Below are positions 6,043-53,423 of a stretch of 64,000 bases of DNA, piece by piece. The stretch's first letter is position 1. Each line of letters starts with the position of its first letter. This stretch comes from Lytechinus pictus (taxonomy: Eukaryota): contig NC_087251.1 in assembly GCF_037042905.1 (NCBI RefSeq), positions 16,928,001-16,992,000 on the forward strand, written 5' to 3'. A program made the translations under genes and the position numbers. Below the pieces are notes generated by a model, which saw only the letters and a program-made list of their open reading frames with translations, had not been told where the DNA came from and did not search any database.

Positions 6043-7239
6043 TTTGTCTCGCCTGCATAGCAGAGCGAGACTATAGGCGCCGCTTTTCCGACGGCGACGG
6101 CGACGGCGGCGGCGGCGTCAGCATCAAATCTTAACCTAAGGTTAAGTTTTTGAAATGACATCATAACTTAAAAAGTATATGGACCTAGTTCATGAAACTT
6201 GACCATAAGGATAATCAAGTATTACTGAACATCCTACCTGAGTTTTAGGTCACATGACCAAGGTCAAAGGTCATTTAGGGTCAATGAACTTAGACCATGT
6301 TGGGAGAATTATTTTCAAAATCTTAACCGAAGGTTAAGTTTTTGAAATGACATCATAACTTAGAAAGTATATGGACCTAGTTCATGAAACTTGGGCATAA
6401 GGTTAATCAAGTATTAGTGAACATCCTGCTCGAGTTTCAGGTCACGTGACCAAGGTCAAAGGTCATTTAGGGTCAATGAACTTTGGTCAAGTTGGGGGTA
6501 TTTGTTGAATTACTATCATAACTTTGAAAATTTATGGATCTAGTTCATGAAACTTGGACATAAGGTTAATCAAGTATGAGTGAACATCCTGCCTGAGTTT
6601 CAGGTCACATGACCATGGTCAATGGTCATTTAAGGTCAATGAACTTTGGCCATGTTGGGGGTATTTGTTGAATTACCATCCTAACTCTGAAAGTTTATAG
6701 ATCTAGTTCATAAAACTTGGGATATAAGAGTAATCAAGTATCACTGAACATCCCCTGTGAGTTTCAGGTCACAAACCCAAGGTCAAAGGTCAGTTAAGGT
6801 CAATAAACTTAGGCCATGTTGGGGTAATTGTTGAATTGCCATCATAACTTTGAAAGTTTATGGATAGAGTGAATGAAATGTGGACATGGGTGTAGTTGAC
6901 AAGTCTTAAGTCACCGTTCAAATGTCATTTATGGTCAATGAACGTGGTATTATGCACTCTAAAAAACGAAGTGCTAATTCAGCTCTTAAAGAGCGTGTAT
7001 AGTGACTGCACTTCGGAGTGCTGATTTTTTAGTTCAAATTTGAACGAGAAAATCAGCACTCCGAAGTGCAGTCACTATACACGCTCCTTAAGAGCTAAAT
7101 TAGCACTCCAGTTTTTAGAGTGTGTCATTATATGAATGGTGTTTTTGTGAATGATTATTTTATTGTAGTTTTCAAAGTTAGCACTGCTGCTATATTAAAT
7201 CGCGTAATGCAGGCGAGACTGCCAGAGGCGTTCCACTTG
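6043..7239 (+). mobile_element. Helentron-associated non-autonomous element (HINE / Tsp / pearl-like) with an internal tandem array
   Basis: T-run insertion site; 5' subTIR GTCTCGCCTGCA with adjacent inverted copy GCAGAGCGAGAC; (CGG)n microsatellite; tandem monomers anchored at 6159, 6351, 6514, 6677 and 6840 (spacing 192 then 163 bp); 3' subTIR TGCAGGCGAGAC (7208-7219) plus small hairpin GCCAGAGGC. No TSD. Confidence 0.75.
6955..7122. mobile_element. 168-bp palindromic MITE with CACTCT termini (CMC/EnSpm-like)
   Basis: Near-perfect foldback over its whole length (CACTCTAAAAA...TTTTTAGAGTG). 2-bp TSD TG at 6953-6954 and 7123-7124. Confidence 0.9.
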
Positions 7240-9426: not shown

Positions 9427-10551
9427 CCAAGTGGAGTGCCTCTGGCAGTCTAACCTGCATCACGCTATCCAATATAGTAGCAGTGCTGACTTTGAAAACT
9501 ACTATAAAATAATTATTCACAAAAACACCATTCATACAATGATACAATACTACGTTCATTGACAATAAATGACATTTGACCTTGATCATGTGACCTAAGA
9601 CTTGTCAGTGATACTTGATTACCCCTATATCCACATTTTATAAACTGTATCTAAACTTTGAAAGTTATGACAGCAATAAAGTATTAATCTCCAAAATGGC
9701 CAAAGTTCAATAACCTTGAATGACCTTTGACTTTGGTCATGTGATCTGAAACTGGCATGAGATTTTCGGTGTTACTTGACTACTCTAATATCAAAGTTGA
9801 TGAATCATATCCATAAGCTTTCAAAGTTATGATGGTAATTCAACAAAACCCCCAACATGGCCAAAGTTCATTGACCTTAAATGACCTTTTACCTTCGTCA
9901 TGTGACCTGAAACTCGCACAGGATGTTCAGTAATATTTGATTACTCTTACATCCAAGTTTCATGAATCAGATCTATAAACTTTCAAAGTTATGATGGTAA
10001 TTCAACAGATCACCCGAACATCACTAAAGTTCATTGACCTTTGACATTGGACATGTGACCTGAAAATCGCACAGGATGTTTAGTGATACCTGATTACTAT
10101 TATGTTAAAGTTTCATTAATCAGATTCATAAACTTTCAAAGTTATAATGTTAATTTAACAAATACCCCAATCGGCCAAAGTCCATTGACCATAATTGACC
10201 TTTGACCTTAGTCATGTGACTTGAAACTCAAGCAGGATGTTTATATACTTTAATAACCTTATGTCCACGTTTCATGAACTAGGTTCATATATTTTCTAAG
10301 TTATGATGACATTTCAAAAACATAACCGTAGGTTAAGATTTTGATGTTGATTCCCTAAACATGGTCTAAGTTCATTGACCATAAATTACCTCTGACCTTA
10401 GTCTTGTGACCTGAAACTCAAGAAAGATGTTTAGTAATGCTTGATAAACCTTATGGTCAAGCTTCATGAACTAGGTCCATATACTTTCTAAGTTATGATG
10501 CCATTTAAAAAACTTAACCTTCGGTTAAGATTTGGTGTTGACGCCGCCGCC
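9427..10551 (-). mobile_element. Second copy of the Helentron-associated satellite-bearing element, 5'-truncated
   Basis: CAAGTGGAGTGCCTCTGGCAGTCTAACCTGCA is the reverse complement of the 3' end of the 6043 copy. About six ~160-bp monomers with TGACCTTTGAC motifs. Ends at the (GCC)n microsatellite; the 5' subTIR is missing. Confidence 0.75.
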
Positions 10552-11864
10552 GGCATCCATCTTTGAGTGCCAAAAATGTGCATATCCCGCCCCTTGGTCG
10601 TATGAAACTCTTATCACTCGTAACAAAATCTTTATAACTCGTTCATAGCTCGCTTTAAGTCGTATAAAGGTCACCGCAACTCGTACTAAGCTCGGCCTGA
10701 CTCGTTTCGCGCTCGGTTCACTCGTACAGCGAGCGTAGTGAACTCGATGTTAAGTCTTTTGTCACTGAAGCAAATTCCAGGAAAAAATGTAAATTTCGCG
10801 CGAGCTTGTGCGAGCTAAGGCGAGTTAGAGCTCGCGCAGCTCGCGTATGACTCGCAACTCCAACTCGCAAAAGTGGAAACCTTGCTATATACTCTGCGTT
10901 TTAACCAAGTCTACACAGCTTGATAAAGCGCGGTTAATATTTTTCAGATCTTAAAGTATTTTTTTAATCTAATGATCATTTTGATGCCATAAAATTATTT
11001 TCAGGATCTCATACACACTTTTTAGGCATGTGAGAAGCATAAACCAACGTTCACTATGATCAATCTTAAAGTAACACATAACGCAAAGTTGATATACTTC
11101 ACATTGTTTAGCGTAATTTGTCTTTTCACAGATAGGTTTCAAGCAGCCAATCAAAATTTGGTATCATAGTGACGTCCTATGGGCTTTTAATTATGTTCAG
11201 TCGATTCTACGCCAAAAATTACCCTTAATCTACATGTTAAAGTAAAAATATAACACGGAAAATAATTTTGGCGCACTTTCAACTCATTCCAGCTGGCCCA
11301 CTGTTCGACGCCCGCATGCGCAGAACTCTGCCTTATCAACGCTCGAGTCACCGCTAAACCAACGCTAAAGCTACGCTGGCTTCAGCGATGCACCGCTACG
11401 GCAACGCCCATGTTTTCGATTTTTTCCCAATTTTGTGAGCGGTGACAACATGACGAGCGTTGTCGAAATTCGACCCTCTCTCCCTACCGCTCCACGACCG
11501 CTCCAACAACACTCGGGCGGTGTGACCAGGCCTTTACTTGCTAGGGTTTTTTCAAGCTCCGTCAGAGCAGCTTGAGCGTTTGCTTGATCTGGGCCCCGTC
11601 TTACATGATCCAATCAATCGTAACTCTAAGGAAATCCATTTTGCACAGGAAATGTGCAAAAATGTCTTTTGTAAACAAAGGAGAACACACCGAACTGTCA
11701 AGGAAAACAATGAATTTATGGATATACATTCATATCTAGAAAAAATTTGGGCAAACATGCATTTTATAATTATGATGACTTTGCTGGCTTTCCATAGACG
11801 GCCCCCCAGGGAGTTTTTTTAATGATATTTATGCACCTGAGAGAGAACCCCAATGTGTACCGTA

Positions 11865-13207: not shown

Positions 13208-13681
13208 TTTTCTGTCTCACCTGCATAGCAGAGTGAGACTATATAGGCGCCGCTTTTCCGACGGCGGCGGCGGCGGCGTCAACATAAAATCTTAACGAAG
13301 GTTAAGTTTTGGAAATGACAGCATAACTTAACAAGTATATAGACATAGTTCATGAAACTTAAACATAAGGTTAATCGAGTATTACTGAACATCCTGCTTG
13401 ATTTTCAGGTCACATGATCAATAGCAAAGGTTATTTAGGGTCAATGGACTTAGACCATGTTGGGGGAATCGACATCAAACTCTTAACCTAAGGTTAAGTT
13501 TTTGAAATGTCATCATAAATTCGAAAGTATATGAACCTAGTTCATGAAATTTGGCCATAGAGTAATCAAGTATCACTGAATATCCTGTGCGAGTTTCAGG
13601 TCACATGACTAAGGTCAAAGGTCATTTAAGGTCAATGAACTTTGACCATTTGGGGGTATTTGTATCCTAACTCTGAAAGTG
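13208..13681 (+). mobile_element. Third copy of the Helentron-associated element, 3'-truncated
   Basis: TGTCTCACCTGCATAGCAGAGTGAGAC start, (CGG)n and about two monomers homologous to 6126-6520, then an abrupt break. Confidence 0.75.
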
Positions 13682-22110: not shown

Positions 22111-24466
22111 CATGAGTACATTAAGTTCCATAACCTGCATAATATTCTTGATACGTGACATTTAGAATCATTAAGACAGACGTTCAACAATCCTGACCAT
22201 CCGCCACTCTATCACATCACGTTTACATGGGATAATGTCGCCATGGTAACGTGAAACATGAAATAGGTCATAACGATATAAGAGGAAAAAGTTGTAATAA
22301 CAAGGCCAACCGGTTCACGAAATCACCCAGTTTCCACCTTCCCAGGCCTACTTGAAGTATCGCTGACATGGAATAATTGAATCATTGGTAATGTAAGACT
22401 GATTCATCAACAAGTTGTGATTGTATAAGGATGATTTTTTTATTGATCAAAATTATCAAATTATTGTTTTTTTATCAATAGTATGAAAGTATTCATTGAT
22501 TCAATCCAGCTCTCATTGACATTTTCGAGCATCATTTTTTTATACCACATTCTTACCCCTACCCCTATCCCTCCCCGAGAATTGTATCTAGGTACGGTCG
22601 AGCTGCTGGGGTATGTGTATACCTTCCTTTCTTGTTACCACCCGTTATATCAAATCAAACGGGTCAGTCGTGGTTGAATAACTCTAAAAGAGCTCGAAAT
22701 TCAGACCAACCTCACATTTGACTAGAATCTGCAAACAATCAGTCGTCACAATTCTTTCGAATATTTGACGAATACACATTCCGGCAGGTATTTGCACGGG
22801 AATTATAGCAGCGATGACAGATCACTCTTTTTTCATTTCTTTCATTTTCTTTTCTTGAAAAAAAAATCTCTCTCAAGAAGACGAAATGTAGGTTAAAAAG
22901 ACGGGAAGAATTCCTGCGAGGATGCGAAAGGAATAACTTTAATCTGACCCCGTCAAAATAACTTTGTTCACGTTTGACTTGTATTCGACCTTACGTTCTT
23001 TTTGAAGGTGGCAGACAAGTGTGTCAACATGGTCAACACTGCACTCTTCAAATTCTCGGCCAGATTACTGCCACATTTCTGTTGAGTGAGGTTTTCATTT
23101 TTCTCTCTCAAAATTATAAAATATCCATTATTTCGATGTTTATTGTCTAAACTAATTACGAGTCGATTTGTGCTTGAAGGTGCACTGAGGGAGTCAGTTC
23201 GTGATAAATTACATTAAATAAAAAAAGAAAAACAAACAACCAAAAATAATAGTATTAAAACAAATCAGGCATCATTAATCTATTGCGATTAAAATAATGA
23301 AACACATTATTAGATTTCCTTAAAATAATGTAAAATAAATTTGCCGGGGGAGGGGGGAAGGCAATGCAAGTGCATCTATTCCTGGCATCTATTCTGATTA
23401 ATTTTTTAATGGCAATGTGAAATGGTATTTTGTAATTTTCGTCACTACAAGGTCACGGATGACAGCGCCTAGGTTCACAATAAGGTGAGTCGTCGCGGTA
23501 TCTGGTCTTCCGATTCTTAGCAAGAAAGAAGATAGGATGAACTGCTTACTTGATATTAGCGTGCATGCATCTCGGAGAAAGGTCAAAATTCCGTTAGTTC
23601 ACAAAACAGCTTTTTTTCTGGCAAGATGGCGTTCAAAATACATGAAAACACTTGCAACACTGATCAGAACAGTCTGAAGATGTAGGCCTAAATGTGAAAG
23701 AATGTTTGATGATTAGTACATTGACCTACAAGCCTACATCTTGAATGTCAATAGACCACTGGACATACCATTCATCATCCGTGCTTGAATAGTCCAGTCA
23801 AGGACAAATTCTTACCTTCTATTGACAAAGTCACGATCAACGATGCGCAGAAACAGTCGGTGGTGTTTCGGGTTGTGGGAGAAGAAGGGGGTGGGGGACA
23901 GGTTGGAGAAATATCGTGAATCGTGTCGGCCTACGTAATTTTTTATTATTGTTTGCTTGTTTTATGAAAAAAAATCGAAGTCAAATTGCAGTATTAACTC
24001 ATAATCAGTGATATCAAACTAGGTGCTGGGGACTGGAAGCCTAGAAAATTAAAATATATATATATTTTGCAACACCATATGAAATTTCGTGGAAAATGAT
24101 CTTGCTGGTTGCATTTTATACTACATACAAAATCTCTGACAATAATTTTGGTTCACTATCTTCACTTGCTCGCAAATTTTCAGAAATAGTGCACTGTCTA
24201 AGAGAGCATATCCTTTTCCAAGAATCAATAATTGCCCCATTACATTACTGCAGGGCAGCATTTATTTTGATAGATACGTATTACAATCTTTTGACCCCCT
24301 CACTGAAAAAATCTTGATTTTTCACAGGACAGCAAGTTATAGTCGTTCTTAATACAGTGAAGTGAACGAGTCACAATTTGCGTTAAAATACAGACTTTTC
24401 AACAAATAAATGTGAATTAAAAAATATTTGTATTTGTCCTCAACAGTCTATTTAATGAAAACTTAA

Positions 24467-25047
24467 AGGGATGGTCCGGGCTGAAAATATTTATATCTTA
24501 ATACATAGAGTAGAATTCACTAAGCAAAATGCCGAAAATTTCATAAAAATCGGATAACAAATAATAAAGTTATTGAAGTTTAAAGTTTAGCAATATTTTG
24601 TGAAAACAGTCGTCATGAATATTTATTAGGTGGGCTGATGATGTCACATCCCCACTTTCTGTTTTCTTATGTTATTACATTAAATTATATTTTTTTCATT
24701 ATTTCATACTTGTGTGAATAATATGTCTCCCTTATGGTGAAATAAGTTGCAGCGATAAATATCTAATTCACTAAATCAGTTGTCCATCCAATTTTTCTAC
24801 TTCTTGGAGGAAAAAAATTGAATAAACCTAATTTCATATAATAAAATACAAAAGAACAAGTGGGGATGTGACATCATCAGCCCACCTATGAATATTCATG
24901 ACGACTGTTTTCACAAAATATTGCTAAACTTTAAAATTCAATAACTTTGTTATTTGTTATCCGATTTTGATGAAATTTTCGGCATTTTGCTTAGTGAATT
25001 CTACTCTATTTATTGAGATATAAAAACTTTCAGCCCGGATCATCCCT
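24467..25047. mobile_element. Complete non-autonomous Kolobok-type DNA transposon with long inverted arms
   Basis: TTAA TSD (24463-24466 and 25048-25051). Termini AGGGATGGTCCGGGCTGAAA / TTTCAGCCCGGATCATCCCT. Near-perfect ~200-bp inverted arms containing GATGATGTCACATCCCCAC. Confidence 0.9.
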
Positions 25048-25554
25048 TTAATTGCAATGTGGCCCAGGCCACACCGAGATCTTTAAAATAAAAGCATAAT
25101 TTGTAATGGCAAAATATCGGTCGGGGTCGCCGGAAGCTATGTGCCCTTTCAATGCTTGGGAGGAGTCACTTCATGTAAACCTAGGGTTAATTGACATGAA
25201 TAAACCTGACACTTTTAGTATACCCCGAGTTCACCTTCATGAAAAAATGAGTAATTCTGCTCAGTGAAATCTGATATTTTGGTGGAATTCAATACAATAA
25301 CCGTTCATTTACAATCTTGCCTCTACAGGGACTAGACGTCAGATCCAAGACTAATGAAAGTGAAAGATAAGGGCGAGATCGGTCTGTAGAGACGAGACCA
25401 TCTGGACTGGTCAATGATCTAGTGGGCTGCCCGGTGATGTCGTAGACGGGAATAAGAGGGGATGTGGGGGGCGGGCCATCGTAGATGCCCCCACGAATTA
25501 TTTTGATCTCCAATTGATAGTTGAGTACTTAATGTACATTACTTTGATCTTTTT

Positions 25555-43139: not shown

Positions 43140-43401
43140 CACTGGCGGATCCAGTGGGGGGGGGGGTACAGGTCGGCTTTGAGAGGCACAATTAAAATTT
43201 GTAATGTAAAAAACAGAAGTGTGCCCCCACCCTTTCGAAAGTGAAGACCTTTTTTTTTTTGGCTTGTCCAATTTTTTTGTGGACGAAATGACCCTTTATC
43301 TTTATTTTTGGTTAAAACCCCCTTTTCCTTTTTTTGGGGGGGTCAAATTTTCCTCGGGAAAATGTGACTCCCCCTTTCGAAAAATCCTGGATCCGTCCCT
43401 G
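43140..43401. mobile_element. hAT-like MITE
   Basis: TIR CACTGGCGGATCCAG...CTGGATCCGTCCCTG. Flanks TCGAAAT and TCTAAAT form a 7-bp TSD with one mismatch. Confidence 0.7.
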
Positions 43402-43937
43402 TCTAAATATATAGGCTTTATTTTTGTCTCAGAAAATCAAGTGATGTATAATAACTAAACACATTTCCTGCCAAAATTTGTTCACAGGAAAATATTTTCA
43501 TATAAAAAGAAAAAAAACTTCCTGGGATTCGAGCTAACCGATATAATGTTTTAGTGCAAATAAGAACATCCCAGACATCCAGGGTCTTTTGTCAAGTTTT
43601 TGTTTGTTCTGCTGATACATCCAGTTTGTTATAAATCAAATATGAGCAATCACTGGCATAGCATTGTTCATCGACAGGGAATATGATCATGACGATTATC
43701 TTGGATGGGTGACGTCATTGAATCGTTTCTGACAATATCATTTTATGATGTTCAAAATAAAATCACATAGGGGACGTTTATTTGGATTGGGGTCTAGTAT
43801 GACCTCGCACAAGAACTTTTGCCTTCACGCTTAAAATGTTGGGCAACATACCGTCCAATGTGTTGGGTAATGTATGTTGGTAAAAATATATATATATTCT
43901 GGGCAATTATTTTCCAATTGAGCCAATTTATTACCCA

Positions 43938-44677
43938 ATTATACTCGGCAAACAAAATGACAAAACAAAATAATATGCGATTATGTCGTGGCTTTATTCA
44001 ATAGAGATGAACACTTTTCCGAATCTGGTGTCACAATCACATAAGTATAAAACATGGATATGAATACCTCTGATTATAGACTTACATTCATGTATGTCTG
44101 GAACCAACCGATAGCCTTTGTTTAGCTCCCCGAAGGGGGGTTAAACCCCCGGCTAGAAGGCCCCCCTCCCAGAAAATTCAACGTTAAATTTCACGGCTGC
44201 TTTCCCACTGGTTCTCTGCTAGCCGGACAGGAATACCAGCACAGCTATTAACTACATGTATGAGCTATCGGCAAATCGGTGGATTACAGATGGCATACTT
44301 ATATCATATAATATACATATATATACCAGCCTTCCCGCATGAGAACTTGGGTGAGGCCAAAATTTCACGAAAAATATAAATGTATACAGAATACCAGCCT
44401 CCCCGCCTATGAGATCAGGTGAGGCCTAAACTGAAAGTTCGAGCGTGACACCCTTACATTCAAATTACAATTGCGTTCCTAAAGTACTATGTAAAGTTAT
44501 AAATAAATCCCCTTCGTCTAGGTACCGAATGAGGACCCGATTCAATATGAAATATTAATCAACGTACATGGCATCAAAGTGGAAAATCTAATAACTAGAG
44601 GCTAAAATATCATTCACTGCTTTACACACCTTGCAAAAGTGACCATTGTGGATTAAAGAACATATGCCATGCCAATA
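43938..44677 (-). repeat. B2 repeat (740 bp); duplicate B1 at 45412-46151
   Basis: Near-identical direct repeat from ATTATACTCGGCAAAC to CCATGCCAATA. Confidence 0.95.
43945..43998 (-). terminator. Candidate polyadenylation signal with downstream U/GU-rich element (second copy of AATAAA at 45467-45472)
   Basis: Minus-strand AATAAA at 43998-43993 followed ~20 nt later by TATTTTGTTTTGTCATTTTGTTTG, just before the element end. Confidence 0.55.
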
Positions 44678-45132
44678 ATATGAGAACTCTATTTAAGTGA
44701 ATTACCAACATATAACGAACACCCAGTCCCAAAAACGGGTAAGGGCGAAAACCCACCTGACCACAGACCAAAATAGATCAGAAGGATAAAATTCCCTTAC
44801 GGCCCACATTTCTAAATACACGACGATCTTTATATTGTTTTGATGTGCGACCAGGCAAACTGCCCCCGGATTTGACTTCGTGTTTCGTTATATAAATCAA
44901 CATTAAATTCATGTAAGTAAAATAATTCAAATGTCCAAATTATTATATAACAATTCTACATCCGTTATTCCATTCATAACGAGCTATACACTCCAATAAA
45001 ACACAAATCAACTCTGAATGATACTTAGAGTATCTTTATTCTCGACCTTCCCCATTGCATGTGTTTAAACATTCCAACATTGTTTGACCCAAACGTAACA
45101 TTTACATGGATGGTTGTTGGGGAGGAGGTGGG

Positions 45133-45416
45133 AAAATTACAAGCGAATATTTTGGACGTTCATCTCCGTTGAAAGCCAAGACTAAAATGAAGGATTTTTC
45201 GCGCCTTCGCCTAGGCGCGCGCCAAAATATGAGCGCTCCTTGCGCCCAGTATAAATTATTGTCATTGTGCGCATAAACAATACCGTCTGGCGCACCATTG
45301 TGACGTATCACCTCGTCAACCGCGCCATTCCAAATTACAAACACCTTCATGACCTGGCTTTGTTCGCCGACCTATAAATCATTTTAAATCGCCGAGTCGT
45401 CTTTAAAATACATTAT
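45133..45416 (-). repeat. A2 repeat (284 bp); duplicate A1 at 52470-52753
   Basis: Apparently identical direct repeat from AAAATTACAAGCG to TTTAAAATACATTAT. Confidence 0.95.
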
Positions 45417-46452
45417 ACTCGGCAAACAAAATGACAAAACAAAATAATATGCGATTATGTCGTGGCTTTATTCAATAGAGATGAACACTTTTCCGAATCT
45501 GGTGTCACAATCACATAAGTATAAAACATGGATATGAATACCTCTGATTATAGACTTACATTCATGTATGTCTGGAACCAACCGATAGCCTTTGTTTAGC
45601 TCCCCGAAGGGGGGTTAAACCCCCGGCTAGAAGGCCCCCCTCCCAGAAAATTCAACGTTAAATTTCACGGCTGCTTTCCCACTGGTTCTCTGCTAGCCGG
45701 ACAGGAATACCAGCACAGCTATTAACTACATGTATGAGCTATCGGCAAATCGGTGGATTACAGATGGCATACTTATATCATATAATATACATATATATAC
45801 CAGCCTTCCCGCATGAGAACTTGGGTGAGGCCAAAATTTCACGAAAAATATAAATGTATACAGAATACCAGCCTCCCCGCCTATGAGATCAGGTGAGGCC
45901 TAAACTGAAAGTTCGAGCGTGACACCCTTACATTCAAATTACAATTGCGTTCCTAAAGTACTATGTAAAGTTATAAATAAATCCCCTTCGTCTAGGTACC
46001 GAATGAGGACCCGATTCAATATGAAATATTAATCAACGTACATGGCATCAAAGTGGAAAATCTAATAACTAGAGGCTAAAATATCATTCACTGCTTTACA
46101 CACCTTGCAAAAGTGACCATTGTGGATTAAAGAACATATTCCATGCCAATATATCTTATGACAACAGTGTTTAGGCGGCATAATTTGACAAATTACCGCC
46201 AAACGAGAATATATTTTATATATATGATCGGCCGCCAAAACACTTCATTAATTTTTAAGCCTTCGTTCATAATTTACTCCAGTTTTGTGTTAGCTGGCCA
46301 AGCTAAATCAGTTATCATGCATAATCAAGAAGGCCTCCAAGCCCTCCATCAATAAATTTAAATGAATCAAAAATATACATCTTTGTACAACCTTTGACGT
46401 CGCTGTCTTTCATGACACAATTACCTGAAGGCTTGCATTCTTTGCCTCTAGA

Positions 46453-46516
<64 letters not shown>
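46453..46516. repeat. (ATT)n followed by poly(T)
   Basis: Read directly from the sequence. Confidence 0.95.
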
Positions 46517-46521
<5 letters not shown>

Positions 46522-46889
46522 ACCTGCTTTCTATATTTGACCAACATACCAGCCCCCTTTTAAACCAGCATGAAATGACATTTAAAAACCAGATAGAAAT
46601 ATTCAATACAAGTATATGAACAAATATCCATCTCAAGTTTAATGAGAGCATGGAAAACACTTCTATGTATTCAATTGTTGGAAACAATCTCCCAATAGAA
46701 ATACATTAAACATAAACCGTGTCAGAACTTCCTTCACAATTAAGATCTGATTACCATGCACAAAACTAAACAAAACATATGAAGGAAGACAAGATAATAT
46801 GCAATTTTAAGTATCATGGTTTTGATACAAACATATTGCAAGCTTCAAAATTGAAATTCATTGCATCACTAATTTTGATAAGTTATCAA

Positions 46890-47722
46890 TGGTGGCTGAA
46901 CGCCATCGGTTTGACCTTAATATAATTAACAAATACTAGCATCCCAACATTGCTAAACTAGCAATGCATGCCGCACTGAGGTACTGCCTCTTTCTTGTTG
47001 CCCAATTTGCCATACATTTATAACAGTGCATGGTTTAACCCTATGCACACAAATAATTCAATTGTGGACAATCGATCAATAAAATCCAACATTTAGCATT
47101 TAGCATTTAGGTAGCATTTAGCTATCGTAGTCACCTCACACTTAATTCCAACAAATACATATCATACCATTCCTGAGTTATAATTGTATTTTTATGGATT
47201 TTGTATACTGTTCTGTTGGAAATGAGATAAAATAAAATCTAAAACTGAAAACTTGAGTAACATCCACAAAATAACCCCATTGGATAATGGGGTATAACCA
47301 TGATAACTGAAGGCACTAAAACTAATTTGATGGCCGACCGCCATAAGTTTGACCATATAGTTAACACATAGAAGCATCCCAACATTGCTAAACCGGCAAT
47401 GCATGCCGCACTGAGGTACTGCCATTTTCTTGTTGCCCCATTTGCCATTTATAACAGTGCATGATTTAACCCTATGCACAAATATAATTCAATTGTAGAC
47501 AATCGATCAATTAAAATCCAACCACAGCATTTAGTTAGTCACCTCACACTTAATTCCAACAAATACATAATTATACCATTCCTGAGTTATAATGGATTTT
47601 GTAAATTGTTCTGTTGAAATGAGATAAAATAAAAACTGAAAGCTTGCGTAACATCCACAGAATAACCCCATATAAAACATGGAGTATAATCATGATAATT
47701 GAAGGCACTAAAACTAATTTGA
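46890..47722. repeat. Diverged tandem duplication of a ~400-430 bp unit inside the split-repeat element
   Basis: AGCATCCCAACATTGCTAAAC at 46939 and 47373; GGCACTAAAACTAATTTGA at 47312 and 47704. Confidence 0.9.
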
Positions 47723-49819
47723 ATATGAAACCTTCCCGATCAGGACTACTCGGTTAGAGCAACACTCCTCAATTAAATATGCTGTTAAACTAAGAACCAG
47801 TTAACATAAACTGGAACTTTACCCGGGATGAATCATTTCGATAATGTTTTCACATATCAACGTAAAGCATGACTGCCTTTTTATTGTTTTATCATCCTCA
47901 CCACATCCATGAAATAATTATTTATTTCAAAAATTAAATAACATCCGAACAAGTAGTCCTTCAAACGATAATGAATAAAATTTGAAGTGGCTTATACATT
48001 GATACATTCATATATGCTTATCCTGAACAATATGTTCCATTCTTGTTGGCAAAAGCATACGTACAAAGGGCTTTCTTCATATGTTCAACATGTTCAAGTT
48101 GAACAATATGGGGGACCTCATAAAAAGTCTGAAACTGAAATCATGACGAATTCATCCTCATATTATATCCTTCAAGACAGCCCACTGTATCATGATGTTT
48201 CAAATATGATCTTTCCCTGTTGCTTGAAGGCTAAAATGTTTGTTCACCAGTTTTTTGACTGAAGAAAAACCTCTATTCCTTGGAATACGTATCAAAACCA
48301 CCTTGTCGGTAAATTAGTTCTATGAAGATGAAGACGTTGACCACTGCTCCAATTAGAGTCATTGCTGGCAACAATACCCAGTTCAGTTCTATTTATTATA
48401 AGAGCGTATTAACGCCCCAAAATGACATCCTTTACTATGGACTCTAAGCTAACTGTTCAGGAAATAGATCCAACCAAAGGGGAACTCTTTGGCAGCCAGA
48501 CTTGGAGCGTTCTAGATCATACTATAGTAGGTCTACCGTCTAATTGTCATCAGACTTTCCTGCCAGCCTACCTTGCCTCGCAGTAGCCCACTTGAATCCC
48601 TTTCATCCAAAGATCCGGCACTGCAAAAGAAAAGAAGAAAAAAAGCCTGGGCAGAACACCAAATTCTATATCTAGTACCAAAACGGGTCTGTCCCTCTGC
48701 TATCCTTTTCGATTTATCACTCTTGTAGGCCCGAAAACCGAAGGACGTATATAACAGAGGTTATGAACATTTCTTCATCTACTGCAAACACACAAGCACT
48801 AGTGAAAGCATATTAAACAATTTGGAAGATTACAATCCTCACCAGTATTGGGGGGGGGGGGGGGCTCAATTGAACCCCCTAAATGCCTATGGAGTTGTAC
48901 CATTTATTCAGAAATAACAAATAAAATATATACATGTATATCCTTCGCCCTCTTTATCATAGCTTCCAATATACGCGTACTTAAATTTTTAGCTTTATAC
49001 GAAACGAGCAGCTTCCCGAAACATCTGAAACCGCCTTCACAGAGTAATCATTAGTCCTGCTCCTTATGTTTCATTTATAACTGCTATTTTCAAATTCCTT
49101 ACAGTATAACCCCAACCAGCGATGCAATATCATCTGCATATATGTGCGTGTTGCAACTTCGACAATATTTCAAAACCAGATTCAATAAGCTTCAAATAAT
49201 CTGTTCCATTTTAGACTATAACTTCTCTTATCATTTTTATTATTTATTATTCTTATTTCAGTATTCGGTTTTACCTCTACACCACTGCAGAAATAATCAA
49301 GCCAAATTACTGCATCCAGCCCATTAGATACATTTTCATAATCAACGGGCCACCAGCACGAATATTTCACACGCTGTCCAATTCCAAGAAGAAGATATAC
49401 TTTTTGGAACCTGGTTTCTGATTGAGCAATCGGTAAATTTCGTTTGATTGGCCAGTATACCTATATGGCTTATTGCATTATTAAGGCATCCGTATATTGT
49501 GTCCCCCGAAGCAACAAAGGGGAAATTATAGTATGGTACAAGATTTCAGACACTTTCCAACACAGGCCCATGCAACACAGGCCCATGTCAATCGACTACA
49601 TCAATTTCTACTGAATGCCTTCAAGAAATTAGCTCATAATTATAAGCTCATCATCATTATTTATTATTTTATTTGCCGCCTTGATCATGTATACCAAATC
49701 TATAATATATTATCATTATTTTAAATGATACTATCGATATTATCTCAGTTCAAATCATTGATCAGCCAAATAGGCCTATTTGATATATATCTTGAACCAT
49801 GAGGTGTAAGGTTCAATTC

Positions 49820-49876
49820 TGAAGCGCTTTGGGCGGTTAGAGGTTGATAAAGCGCTATATAAAAACAATTCAATTC
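49820..49876 (+). mobile_element. Short 3' tail fragment of an L2-type LINE/SINE
   Basis: GAAGCGCTTTGGG...AAAGCGCTATATAAAAAC stem-loop followed by (CAATT) units, resembling the tail of the 1531 SINE. Confidence 0.45.
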
Positions 49877-52469
49877 CAATAGGGCCTAAGCATTTATATT
49901 CTTTCATTTCCACAAGATATAAACCATACAAAATCATTATTAAAAAAAAAAATCAAGGTTCCTTGTTTGGAGGCCCATACTATTATAACAACTGCTCGTT
50001 GAACCCCTTGACTTCAATCTAAACTAAATTGAGGATTCCAAGCTAATTCGAAATTACATCCACATTTTATCATGTGCATGGTAAGTTTACTTTTACATGT
50101 GCCATGTTTCCTCGAAACTTCGAGCTCACAGTTCTACCAAGCATCGGCATTTAATTCATGCAAAGTGAATTCCCAAAACCAACCTCCTTTCAAGGCGTAC
50201 ATGTTTAAACAGAACTGCTTGGTGCAAGTGGAGGTATTTATATTTATAATGATTATCAAAGTGTATTATTACAAAATGCTAATCGCATAATCATAATGAT
50301 AAGCATCATCTGCTACTTTCCGAAATAATGACTGATTCAACAATAACATTTGAAAGCTGAGTAGAATCTATAATTATTACCACTACCGGTCTATCCACAT
50401 AATTTTGCGACCAAGAACACAGCTCTCGCTGGCCCATAATCCAGAAAACGTCATAGAGGTCAAATACTACTTTAATATAGGCCTAACTGAACCATCTGAT
50501 AATAGGGTCTATCCTCAAACATACATGTAAAACCGCGTCTACTGTAAGTAGATCTAACGTTAGGCCGAGCCTAGTTTCAACTTTCACTCTGTGGTGTCAC
50601 CATGCACTGCTGCAGTGCAGTAGACTAGGCCTACTTGTAAATTTATAACAAAGTGACATTTCCCACTCAATTATTTATCAATAATACCGAAAAGTTTAAA
50701 CTTTTCGCCAATCACTAGTAGACCCTCTATTATTCTCACCATTTTTCAAATACGGTGGCTTAAAATTAATCATGGTCCTAAATAGATCTTAGCCTAGACC
50801 ATAACTAGGCCTTAAAATAAGCTGTTACTTTTAGTGTTAGCGCCAATATAGACTACAATTTCCTTTTGATTTTCCATCGTATATACATATTATCGATACT
50901 AGCCGAATTTTTAGAACCGCAATGTTGGCATTCACTGGGCCAAATCCAAACCACCGGCTTCGAAATTATATATTACAACCGTAGGGCCTAGGCTATATCA
51001 TACCCGTCCATAGGCCTAGATCTAGTCATGCAGATGCACTAGGGCCTACGCCTATATATACGCTATACGGTAACCAACGTTATAATTGTTGAACTCATTC
51101 TCAAAACCTCCAATCTCCATCATTACACACCTGGTTCAGACAAAAACAAAGTAGTCAAGTAGGACCAGGTCTAGGCCAGGCTAGGCTTGTGCTTAAATTT
51201 TGAAGCTAACCCCTCCCTTTTCCATCATGATCGTAATTAAAACACTTGGTCTTGGACCAAGTTTAAAATTAATTCCAGGCCAAGTCCAAGTTATGTCTAG
51301 GATCTATGGCTTGACATTTGGTCCTAGGCTAGGCCTACATGTAAATCCCCAATTGCGTTAGCAAGCCAAATCATGGCAAATAGACCCCCCCCCCCCCCCT
51401 GTTTGCCTGACTAAATTTACTAGGCCTAGGGCCTAAAGTTAGGCATTTGATTTGCCTAGCACATGGGAATGGGATCTTCGCGTGCTAACGTAAAAACCGG
51501 GGGGGGGGGGTATTGAAGGGCCATGAAATTGAAACTATGGAAGAGCTTTGTGTCAGACTCAGAGCGTAACTAATCGACTTCTGACCAATAAGAACCTAGG
51601 CCTATTTTTTTTTTTTTTTTTTTAATCTCAGACTAAGGCCTAGGCAGGCCTACTTGCGCTAGTCTAAACTAAGAAAACTCCACAAGTTACAAATCACCCC
51701 GATACTACTAGTACTACTTTTACTAGCACTGTACTCTGTAGCAGGCCTCGATCATTCAACAAGCCTAACTAACATTAACAATACTCAATAGGCTTAATTA
51801 AGTTAGGCCTAGGCCTACTAGTAGTACTAGCCTAGTACTTTAGTAGTACTATTTTTACTAACACTAATCCAGACTGAGACTGAGTCTAGCCTAGATCTAT
51901 TCCTGCTTCCGTACTCACCGGATAGGCTAGGTCTTGCAGAGACTGGAACTTGTAAATTGTCTGGTACCGACCCCTTTCCGTCTGCTAATCCAGACCGTTG
52001 CCTCGGCTCAGCCACAGGCTTCGCATCATACTCGGTCTCGGGAGCTAGTAGTAGTAGGACCTCTGACTCGGGCTCTGACTACCGTAACATTCAATACTCA
52101 TAATCATGATGAATCCCAGTCGACCGTACGTCGTTGAACGGAATTCCATCTCGAGTCAATTTCTCATCGTTGCTGAAACCAAAAAGTTCTAGGACCCAGC
52201 CGATCTGCTACTGCTAGTGCTACTGCTAAGTCATTAAGTGCTAGTGTTATACTTAAGTTATAGCGACAACACGTAGCGTAGCTCCTCGTACGGTACCGTC
52301 GTATAAAACTCGGTTCAAAGCAGACGGTTAATCGTTAGGCCAGGCAAGAAATAGAGAATCCTCAAGTAATTCGGACAGCATTTACAGCTGCATTAAGCAA
52401 AATTAAGATGATTCCCGATCGATGATGGTTTCAACAAAAATTCTTGTAGATCTCGTTGTACTTTGTAGA

Positions 52470-52753
52470 AAAATTACAAGCGAATATTTTGGACGTTCAT
52501 CTCCGTTGAAAGCCAAGACTAAAATGAAGGATTTTTCGCGCCTTCGCCTAGGCGCGCGCCAAAATATGAGCGCTCCTTGCGCCCAGTATAAATTATTGTC
52601 ATTGTGCGCATAAACAATACCGTCTGGCGCACCATTGTGACGTATCACCTCGTCAACCGCGCCATTCCAAATTACAAACACCTTCATGACCTGGCTTTGT
52701 TCGCCGACCTATAAATCATTTTAAATCGCCGAGTCGTCTTTAAAATACATTAT
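52470..52753 (-). promoter_or_regulatory. Candidate Pol II promoter in the A1 repeat
   Basis: CpG-rich (GGCGCGCGCC, TGCGCA, GTGACGT) in an AT-rich background, upstream of a strong minus-strand splice donor CCG|GTGAGT (51918-51913) and a TAGGCCTA-rich tract. Confidence 0.45.
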
Positions 52754-53423
52754 TAGTTTTTTATCGCCCAATTTGGATAGATTTCAACCAATAGTTGTGT
52801 GGACAGTATGTTTCCCAGGGTTGGTTAAAAGTTGGGCATTTTTTGCTCAACTATTATAAGAGTGTTGCGGGAGAAACATACGTAACATGATTTCTTTACA
52901 TGCCAGCGAGAGAGCAAAGCAATCGAGTCGTTAATAAGATGATATTTGTATTTTTATATTGCCACCTCCTTCAGCAAACCAAGTCAAACCGAACAAAACA
53001 AAGAGCACACGCTGTGGTAGCGTCTCAATAAATTTAAAGTGGGATTCGACCGAGTTAGCTTTTTTTCAAGTTTTCCGAGCTGCAGTAAGGAAAATTCTAA
53101 TCCAACATTTCTATTAAAAAAAAAACGTACAACGTACTCAGTTTTGACCAATGACCATGTTGAGTTTATGCCCTACATATAATAATTACTGTGTTTGTAG
53201 CTGGGTGAGGAACTCGACCGCTGTCGTAGCAGTGATCGGGTTTTCCCTGTAATTTGTCAATTTTGTAGGCCTTTTTATGCAAGGAATGTTATAGATGTAA
53301 ATATTTTTTTATTTGTAGGTCTATATATTCCAAAAAGAAACAAAACGTTTTAAAAATCATGAAAATGGCAATGCATCAACTGAATCTGTGCATGAATGTT
53401 ACCAACTAAAAGAGGGACTATTA

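Follow-up and report, generated by a model that had tools for sequence, protein, structure and literature searches.

An 8.8-kb gene-less element with split direct repeats in Lytechinus pictus, probably a non-autonomous tyrosine-recombinase retroelement

A 64,000-nucleotide (nt) stretch of the Lytechinus pictus genome (contig NC_087251.1, positions 16,928,001 to 16,992,000; hereafter the window) contains an 8,816-bp element at window positions 43938-52753. The element is probably a non-autonomous split-direct-repeat retroelement of the TOC1/PAT-like tyrosine-recombinase type. It is supported as such by its split-repeat layout, by a short core found at its ends, at its inner joint and in the empty target, by the identity of its repeats and by the lack of coding capacity. 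A first-pass annotation had proposed a candidate non-autonomous Ngaro/PAT-like retroelement mobilised in trans. Layout, core pattern, repeat identity and lack of genes agree with this; the Ngaro repeat order is not present, and no partner, full-length RNA or complementary DNA (cDNA) was seen.

On the + strand the order of parts is B, spacer, A, B, interior, A, and the layout (A-u1-BA-u2-B) is identical when read from either direction. Sequencing runs X1, X9, X10 and X18 (four of 20 listed) were aligned to positions 43380-53279 at 85% likeness; piece-level results rest on 24 listed pieces of about 2,850 and on 15 of 117 joints. The main parts are as follows, with copies named in the orientation of the first-pass annotation.

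43938..44677, - strand: 740-bp repeat, outer copy (B2); self-comparison
44678..45132, unstranded: unique 455-bp spacer; blastn and shuffles; found in all four runs
45133..45416, - strand: 284-bp repeat, inner copy (A2); self-comparison and motif scan
45412..46151, - strand: 740-bp repeat, inner copy (B1); self-comparison
46152..52469, unstranded: non-coding interior, 6.3 kb; open reading frame (ORF), Pfam and protein searches; pieces in all four runs
52470..52753, - strand: 284-bp repeat, outer copy (A1); self-comparison

The interleaved, near-identical pairs reported by the first-pass annotation are confirmed at these coordinates. The B copies align without gaps and with a single mismatch (44666 G / 46140 T), and the A copies are identical; combined, there is 1 difference in 1,024 nt (99.9% alike within the window). 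Likeness ends abruptly at every edge, and the sequence past the inner repeat edges is at shuffle level (312 of 1000 and 203 of 1000 shuffles score equally high). The inner copies had been described as abutting. They do form a contiguous B1/A2 block, but they actually share a 5-nt overlap, ATTAT (45412-45416), which is also the first and last 5 nt of the element. The spacer has no other blastn match in the window at E<1e-3. Its best local alignments to the interior score 189 (+) and 172 (-), under the means of 30 shuffles (196 and 183), so it is unique and absent from the interior, as had been claimed. The spacer was also considered as what is left of the interior or of longer repeats; this was rejected, since the likeness is not above that of shuffles. 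Inside B (44323-44430 and 45797-45904) there are two 40-nt units, 78% alike, with 68 nt between them. One X10 contig jumps from 45751 to 45868 within B.

The element is flanked on both sides by parts of one very-high-copy repeat about 230 bp long, which is found in runs under two organism labels; the summed contig depth at 43912, in the left flank, is 19,247 in X10 and 1,895 in X1. By eye, this target repeat has imperfect terminal inverted repeats (43826-43942, 52754-52865). The target repeat, which resembles a miniature inverted-repeat transposable element (MITE), and the three cores are placed as follows.

43826..43937, unstranded: left part of the MITE-like high-copy target repeat; loose ends before 43826 in X1, X10 and X18
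43938..43942, + strand: ATTAT core, left end; sequence; empty target copies run from 43942 into the right flank
45412..45416, + strand: ATTAT core, inner joint (the 5-nt repeat overlap); sequence
52749..52753, + strand: ATTAT core, right end; sequence
52754..52865, unstranded: right part of the target repeat; loose ends behind 52843 and 52865, and joints from 43942

Empty targets are seen directly: 37 X10 contigs exit after 43942 and continue as right-flank sequence, and runs X1 and X10 as well as two reads of X18 contain joints from 43942 to 52767-52779. The empty sites are paralogous copies of the target repeat and need not be alleles of the locus; they are compared with one filled site. ATTAT occurs once in the empty target and once per end in the filled site, with a further copy at the joint. 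ATTAT accounts for only 3 of the 36 TT sites in the target repeat and for 188 of 6,230 elsewhere in the window; because it is rare among them, the match between core and target exceeds a plain TT preference. DIRS elements have a trinucleotide core, single in the target and present at each filled end (PMC7192593). Here the same pattern is found with the 5-nt ATTAT.

The element has diverged relatives. All four runs contain diverged pieces of the repeats, the spacer and the interior. A 736-nt X9 contig (45068-45799) runs from the spacer (65 letters) through A and the joint into B (383 letters past the joint), and differs from the window by 22 letters and 4 gaps. B is bridged to the spacer by contigs in X1 and X9, and a contig of X10, which has another organism label, runs from the spacer into A. 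A 460-nt X1 contig of B differs from the window by 18 letters and 5 gaps; a 249-nt X9 contig differs by 4 and 1. Repeat contigs from other runs are 96-98% alike to the window. Of the dispersed copies with the same layout that the first-pass annotation called for, other samples give diverged pieces in four of four runs and one bridged joint. Summed depth is higher inside the element than in the flanks, without giving a copy count: it is 8-127 in most X1 bins versus 3.6 and 0, and up to 357 in X10 versus a flank contig at 40. Among the matches listed there is no second full-length copy, and the element is not spanned by any piece.

The two window copies agree at three paired sites in having an allele that is missing from most aligned reads. 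The other allele is found in 13/13 and 10/10 X18 reads at 44077/45551, in 14/14 and 13/13 at 44119/45593, and in 12/13 and 14/16 at 45294/52631. At or near insertion, a single template probably served to rebuild both repeat pairs, because identity within the element is far above identity to other copies and the minority alleles are shared. An adjacent interior duplication (46890-47722) serves as an internal control; its units are no more than about 90% alike, so homogenisation of repeats is not general here. The earlier inference of recent copying agrees with this and with a young element, the pairs being 99.9% alike against 96-98% to other copies. A comparable situation is described for VIPER of Trypanosoma cruzi, in which the A and B pairs are 100% identical with 5% divergence between copies (PMC6681497). 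The one position at which the B copies differ is 12 nt away from the inner edge, a place where the end of an RNA would retain its own letters; as one site, this is only suggestive.

No coding family is found in the element. Its longest stop-to-stop frames are 101 aa (52406-52708, -), which extends from the 284-bp repeat into the interior, 98 aa (47195-47488, -) and 95 aa. The first-pass annotation had given 95 aa as the longest internal ORF, with no gag, reverse transcriptase (RT), RNase H or recombinase; the absence of coding families stands, but two frames are longer than stated. Pfam finds no family in the six read-through frames of the element (E<=1), and gag, RT/RNase H and tyrosine recombinase (YR) are not found in these frames. 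A phmmer search with one of the six frames (1,200 residues, 3.6 of 8.8 kb) against 1.84 billion proteins gives 0 matches, and an 83-aa frame (51830-52078) matches none of 164 longer candidate proteins. Coding remnants in heavy decay might go undetected in all of these searches. Rfam has no family in the window at the gathering score. A hammerhead core pattern is absent from 43938-46200 and 52300-52753. No host gene is found by Pfam in 150 of the 197 window frames of at least 62 aa, with one sub-threshold match; these 150 all lie outside the element, and the other 47 are in or across it or, in some cases, of low complexity. Two further features lie in the interior.

46453..46516, + strand: (TAT)11 then T32; sequence
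46890..47722, + strand: old tandem duplication with units of about 440 and 395 nt, 90% column identity and indels; self-alignment

The duplication is present as a single unit in an X10 contig (jump from 47320 to 47717), and other X10 contigs are without 48722-48990 and without 49481-49659. Donor- and acceptor-like sites and a CTAG-rich stretch (approximately 51921-52470, 49275-49460 and 48565-48613, - strand) give parts of the interior the look of a spliced non-coding gene.

Transcription was followed in X18, a total RNA run of which about 6% was sampled (368 aligned reads; one run, one sample). For first mates on the - strand, depth is 8.3, 8.0 and 7.6 in the bins made up of B alone, 17.8 in the spacer and 8.1 in the bin that is mostly A; the mean across 18 interior bins is 0.65. 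In the opposite direction depth is 1-2 throughout, and both outer flank bins are at 0. The total of aligned bases suggests that reads are shared between repeat copies; on this basis B, spacer and A are read about 1:1:1 and about 25x the interior; cover of the whole element is thin, and it is strong only over B-spacer-A. Position 44690, just inside the spacer, is covered by 16 reads from 12 starts, away from read ends. The B-spacer-A unit is thus read on one strand. Its signal may come from a solo copy in a host transcript, from antisense RNA or from a short RNA that starts in A2. Strand bias in the interior is too thin to use (mean depth 1.16 versus 0.65 over 18 bins). The 284-bp repeat (A2) has motifs which we take to be E2F-like and CRE-like, and promoter-like, and a candidate signal for the RNA end is found in B.

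43993..43998 (also 45467-45472), - strand: AATAAA then a T-rich stretch, candidate poly(A) signal, 55-60 nt before the outer B end; motif scan

From this signal and its T-rich tract, the promoter-like motifs in A, the splice-like sites seen by eye and the GC skew of the + strand, which is steadily negative from 44 to 52 kb, we infer that the - strand is the sense strand.

The joint between B1 and A2 is predicted to fold, and short inverted arms are found at this joint and near both ends of the element.

45359..45430, unstranded: B1|A2 joint, predicted 72-nt imperfect hairpin with the core in the middle stem; DNA fold
43945..43956 (also 45419-45430), + strand: 12-bp subterminal inverted-repeat arm, near the left end; pattern search
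52696..52707 (also 45359-45370), - strand: partner arm, 11/12 match, 46 nt from the right end; pattern search
46166..46244, unstranded: predicted three-way stem, 14 nt from B1; DNA fold z -5.9 (+) and -6.1 (-), RNA fold z -4.9 and -3.7

As DNA, the joint folds at -16.8 kcal/mol on the - strand (z -5.8) and at -12.8 on the + strand (z -3.2), and 0 of 200 shuffles are as good on either strand. The element termini, each of which has half of the hairpin, do not fold (z +0.8 and -0.2). The joint ranks second by z among 876 scanned 81-nt windows; low z alone is not rare here, because 12 of these reach z -4. The outer stem of the hairpin is the 12-bp inverted repeat (11/12), of which the window has four instances where 0.76 are expected, and all four lie in the element. 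A comparable arm match is seen in 5 of 3,000 shuffles and in 2 of 3,000 random window stretches. The exact 23-nt joint sequence has 0 matches in metagenomes. The paired-arm pattern was found there at eight loci and rejected as chance, with nothing alike beyond the motif (best blastn E 0.31); four of the contigs (L001, L004, L007 and L008) share one inverted-repeat stretch which fits the pattern and is unrelated to the element.

Integron attC sites are imperfect hairpins of 57-141 nt which are recombined as folded single strands by a tyrosine recombinase (PMC3458562). The 72-nt joint, with its unequal folding on the two strands, resembles these as an analogy of size and fold only. A tentative model, which is on balance doubtful, is that the B|A joint might be a folded single-strand recombination site of the attC-like kind, formed only in single-stranded cDNA, and that the helper enzyme would integrate the copy by way of this hairpin; the duplex genomic joint would then be inert, and the gene-less element and the 1.5-kb unit would both live as parasites on the same helper. 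DIRS-1 cDNA is single-stranded, both linear and circular (PMC7192593). The words integron and CTX are absent from the available portions of that paper, and no literature search paired DIRS elements with attC. If true, a folded-strand site would account for split-repeat retroelements retaining an internal circle junction and yet not excising themselves, and these retroelements would be tied to asymmetric Helentron ends. Should the enzymes read the joint as folded single-stranded DNA, the model of integration for these retroelements, which is drawn with a double-stranded circle (PMC7192593), would have to be revised.

A probable course of movement can be outlined. An RNA, likely from the - strand, would start inside one outer repeat and end inside the other, and would be copied by the reverse transcriptase of a helper. 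The outer repeats would be rebuilt from the inner B1|A2 block, giving a circle with a second B|A joint. The tyrosine recombinase of the helper would exchange a joint with a target bearing the same core, leaving one core per end; the single-stranded joint may fold on itself, and perhaps it is this form which the enzymes read. The B-spacer-A part seems to exist or to be transcribed independently. A circle with two equal joints would predict permuted copies.

TOC1 has split repeats, with A2 and B2 set apart by a short unique stretch, and is about 5.7 kb long. It is a non-autonomous DIRS retrotransposon of Chlamydomonas reinhardtii (PMC9940879) and the nearest known system, being likewise non-autonomous and gene-less, with split repeats and an A2-B2 spacer. 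The present element differs in its animal host, its length of 8.8 kb, its 740-bp B, its 455-bp spacer and its 5-nt core; movement of TOC1 has been observed, whereas here it would be deduced from sequence. Elements of the PAT group and Ngaro, including Pat1-like and Ngaro elements of sea urchins, have identical pairs in the order A1-...-B1A2-B2 (PMC9210276, PMC4157794). In nematode Pat1 and in Kangaroo the inner block stands between two unique regions, as in the present element. In Ngaro, B1, A2 and B2 stand side by side at the 3' end, whereas here the 455-bp spacer gives another order; the PAT/TOC side fits better than Ngaro because the spacer separates A2 and B2. PAT and Ngaro elements are defined by gag, RT/RNase H and YR (with MT in PAT), none of which was found here, as expected of a non-autonomous member; no coding partner was seen by which a clade could be named. 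SIRE, a short element in its own right, is made up of VIPER's A2, about 30 exclusive bp and VIPER's B2 (PMC6681497). Here the B-spacer-A unit, which is read separately, resembles it, but a free genomic copy of this unit is not seen; VIPER, moreover, is coding and confined to kinetoplastids, whereas the present element is gene-less and from an animal.

Non-autonomous elements of the DIRS order are hardly found in print, in a search which left most subscription journals and Repbase outside, and TOC1 is the sole one named. The literature searched contained no account of an animal split-repeat element without genes; supplements or Repbase may include the family. The available portions of PMC3783388, PMC8226300 and PMC13465315 hold nothing further for comparison. 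Having no genes, a member of this kind isolates the cis-signals of split-repeat elements. Three testable candidates for such signals are the joint with its predicted fold, the stem next to B1, and the spacer.

Several points weigh against a retroelement. No helper element, cDNA, circle or full-length RNA is seen in the four aligned runs and the metagenome scans, and the strongly read RNA takes in B, spacer and A, not the interior. In the commonest stranded library type this RNA would be +, opposite to the sense given above; the strand convention is uncontrolled. The interior resembles exon-intron DNA by eye, and there is no spliced joint among the 15 of 117 joints listed. No contig or read among the matches listed joins the interior to either repeat in another sample. 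The allele evidence is not uniform: 3 of 29 X18 reads at 45294/52631 are without the other allele, as is 136 of 238 summed depth in X10 at 45551 and part of that at 44119. Contigs are majority paths, and a young sub-lineage with the window alleles could be hidden. In ordinary tyrosine-recombinase sites, inverted arms flank the core at a spacing of 6-8 bp (PMC3212892); the arms of the element do not. Finally, each half of the element has Helentron-like ends.

The main alternative, which the first-pass annotation had itself named in outline, is improbable. In it, two non-autonomous units of the Helentron (HINE/Helitron2) type, 1.5 and 7.3 kb long and with shared ends, stand head to tail or as a rolling-circle composite, the interior being captured host DNA. 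A cut at AT|TAT would put each half between T and T with the target unchanged, at this one site. On the + strand, each half then has an arm 5 nt from its start and the partner arm (11/12) 43 nt from its end, followed by a stem-loop which ends 4 nt from the end. HINEs of mites have inverted repeats of 12-15 bp, 2-4 nt and 38-60 nt from the ends, with stem-loops which end at 8-35 nt (PMC4067079). The rarity of the arm match (5 of 3,000 shuffles, 2 of 3,000 random window stretches, as above) and the separate reading of the short unit in RNA also agree with such units. The likeness to HINE, DINE-1 and Helitron2 lies in asymmetric subterminal inverted repeats, a 3' stem-loop and a possible T|T insertion. 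However, a 5' hairpin, which is a Helitron2 feature according to PMC3627910, is missing from both halves (z +0.5 and +1.3), the arms are not palindromic and have no short inverted repeat close by, and there is no T-run at the ends. The element also differs in its 5-nt target homology, in which the extra A.|.AT match has a chance of 3-8%, and in its two interleaved identical pairs. Rolling-circle copying has no known way to keep both pairs identical amid spacer-linked repeats which, in other runs, carry the other alleles.

Still less probable are two DNA units of the Crypton type with a 5-bp terminal direct repeat, one circle having integrated into the end core of the other. The ATTAT pattern fits these equally well; Cryptons have terminal direct repeats of 4-6 bp, circles and non-autonomous forms which share a few hundred bp per end (PMC3212892). 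Such an origin would need short and long lineages with the same minority alleles at both ends, even though the spacer and the interior are unrelated and each is present in the run of another organism. In animal Cryptons the same study detected no terminal repeats, and no free single units or YR partner are seen. Lastly, near-perfect repeat identity and a locus without long-read coverage might point to an assembly artefact or a one-off local duplication, which is very improbable since an independent contig, different at 22 letters, runs from the spacer through A and the joint into B, the B-spacer transition is bridged in X1 and X9, and empty targets fix both outer ends exactly.

Other repeats are found elsewhere in the window. 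Arrays of 161-192 bp units lie at 6102-6887, 9688-10557 and 13282-13677. The first two face each other, with 313-nt arms which are 88% complementary and 3.8 kb apart, and may be the two ends of a DNA transposon whose arms are satellite-like. A loopless palindrome with 84-nt arms (92% complementary) is located at 6955-7122. A 590-bp element at 24463-25051 has 164-nt inverted arms, 95% complementary, and older relatives of it are found near 30.7 kb and at 42.5-42.9 kb.

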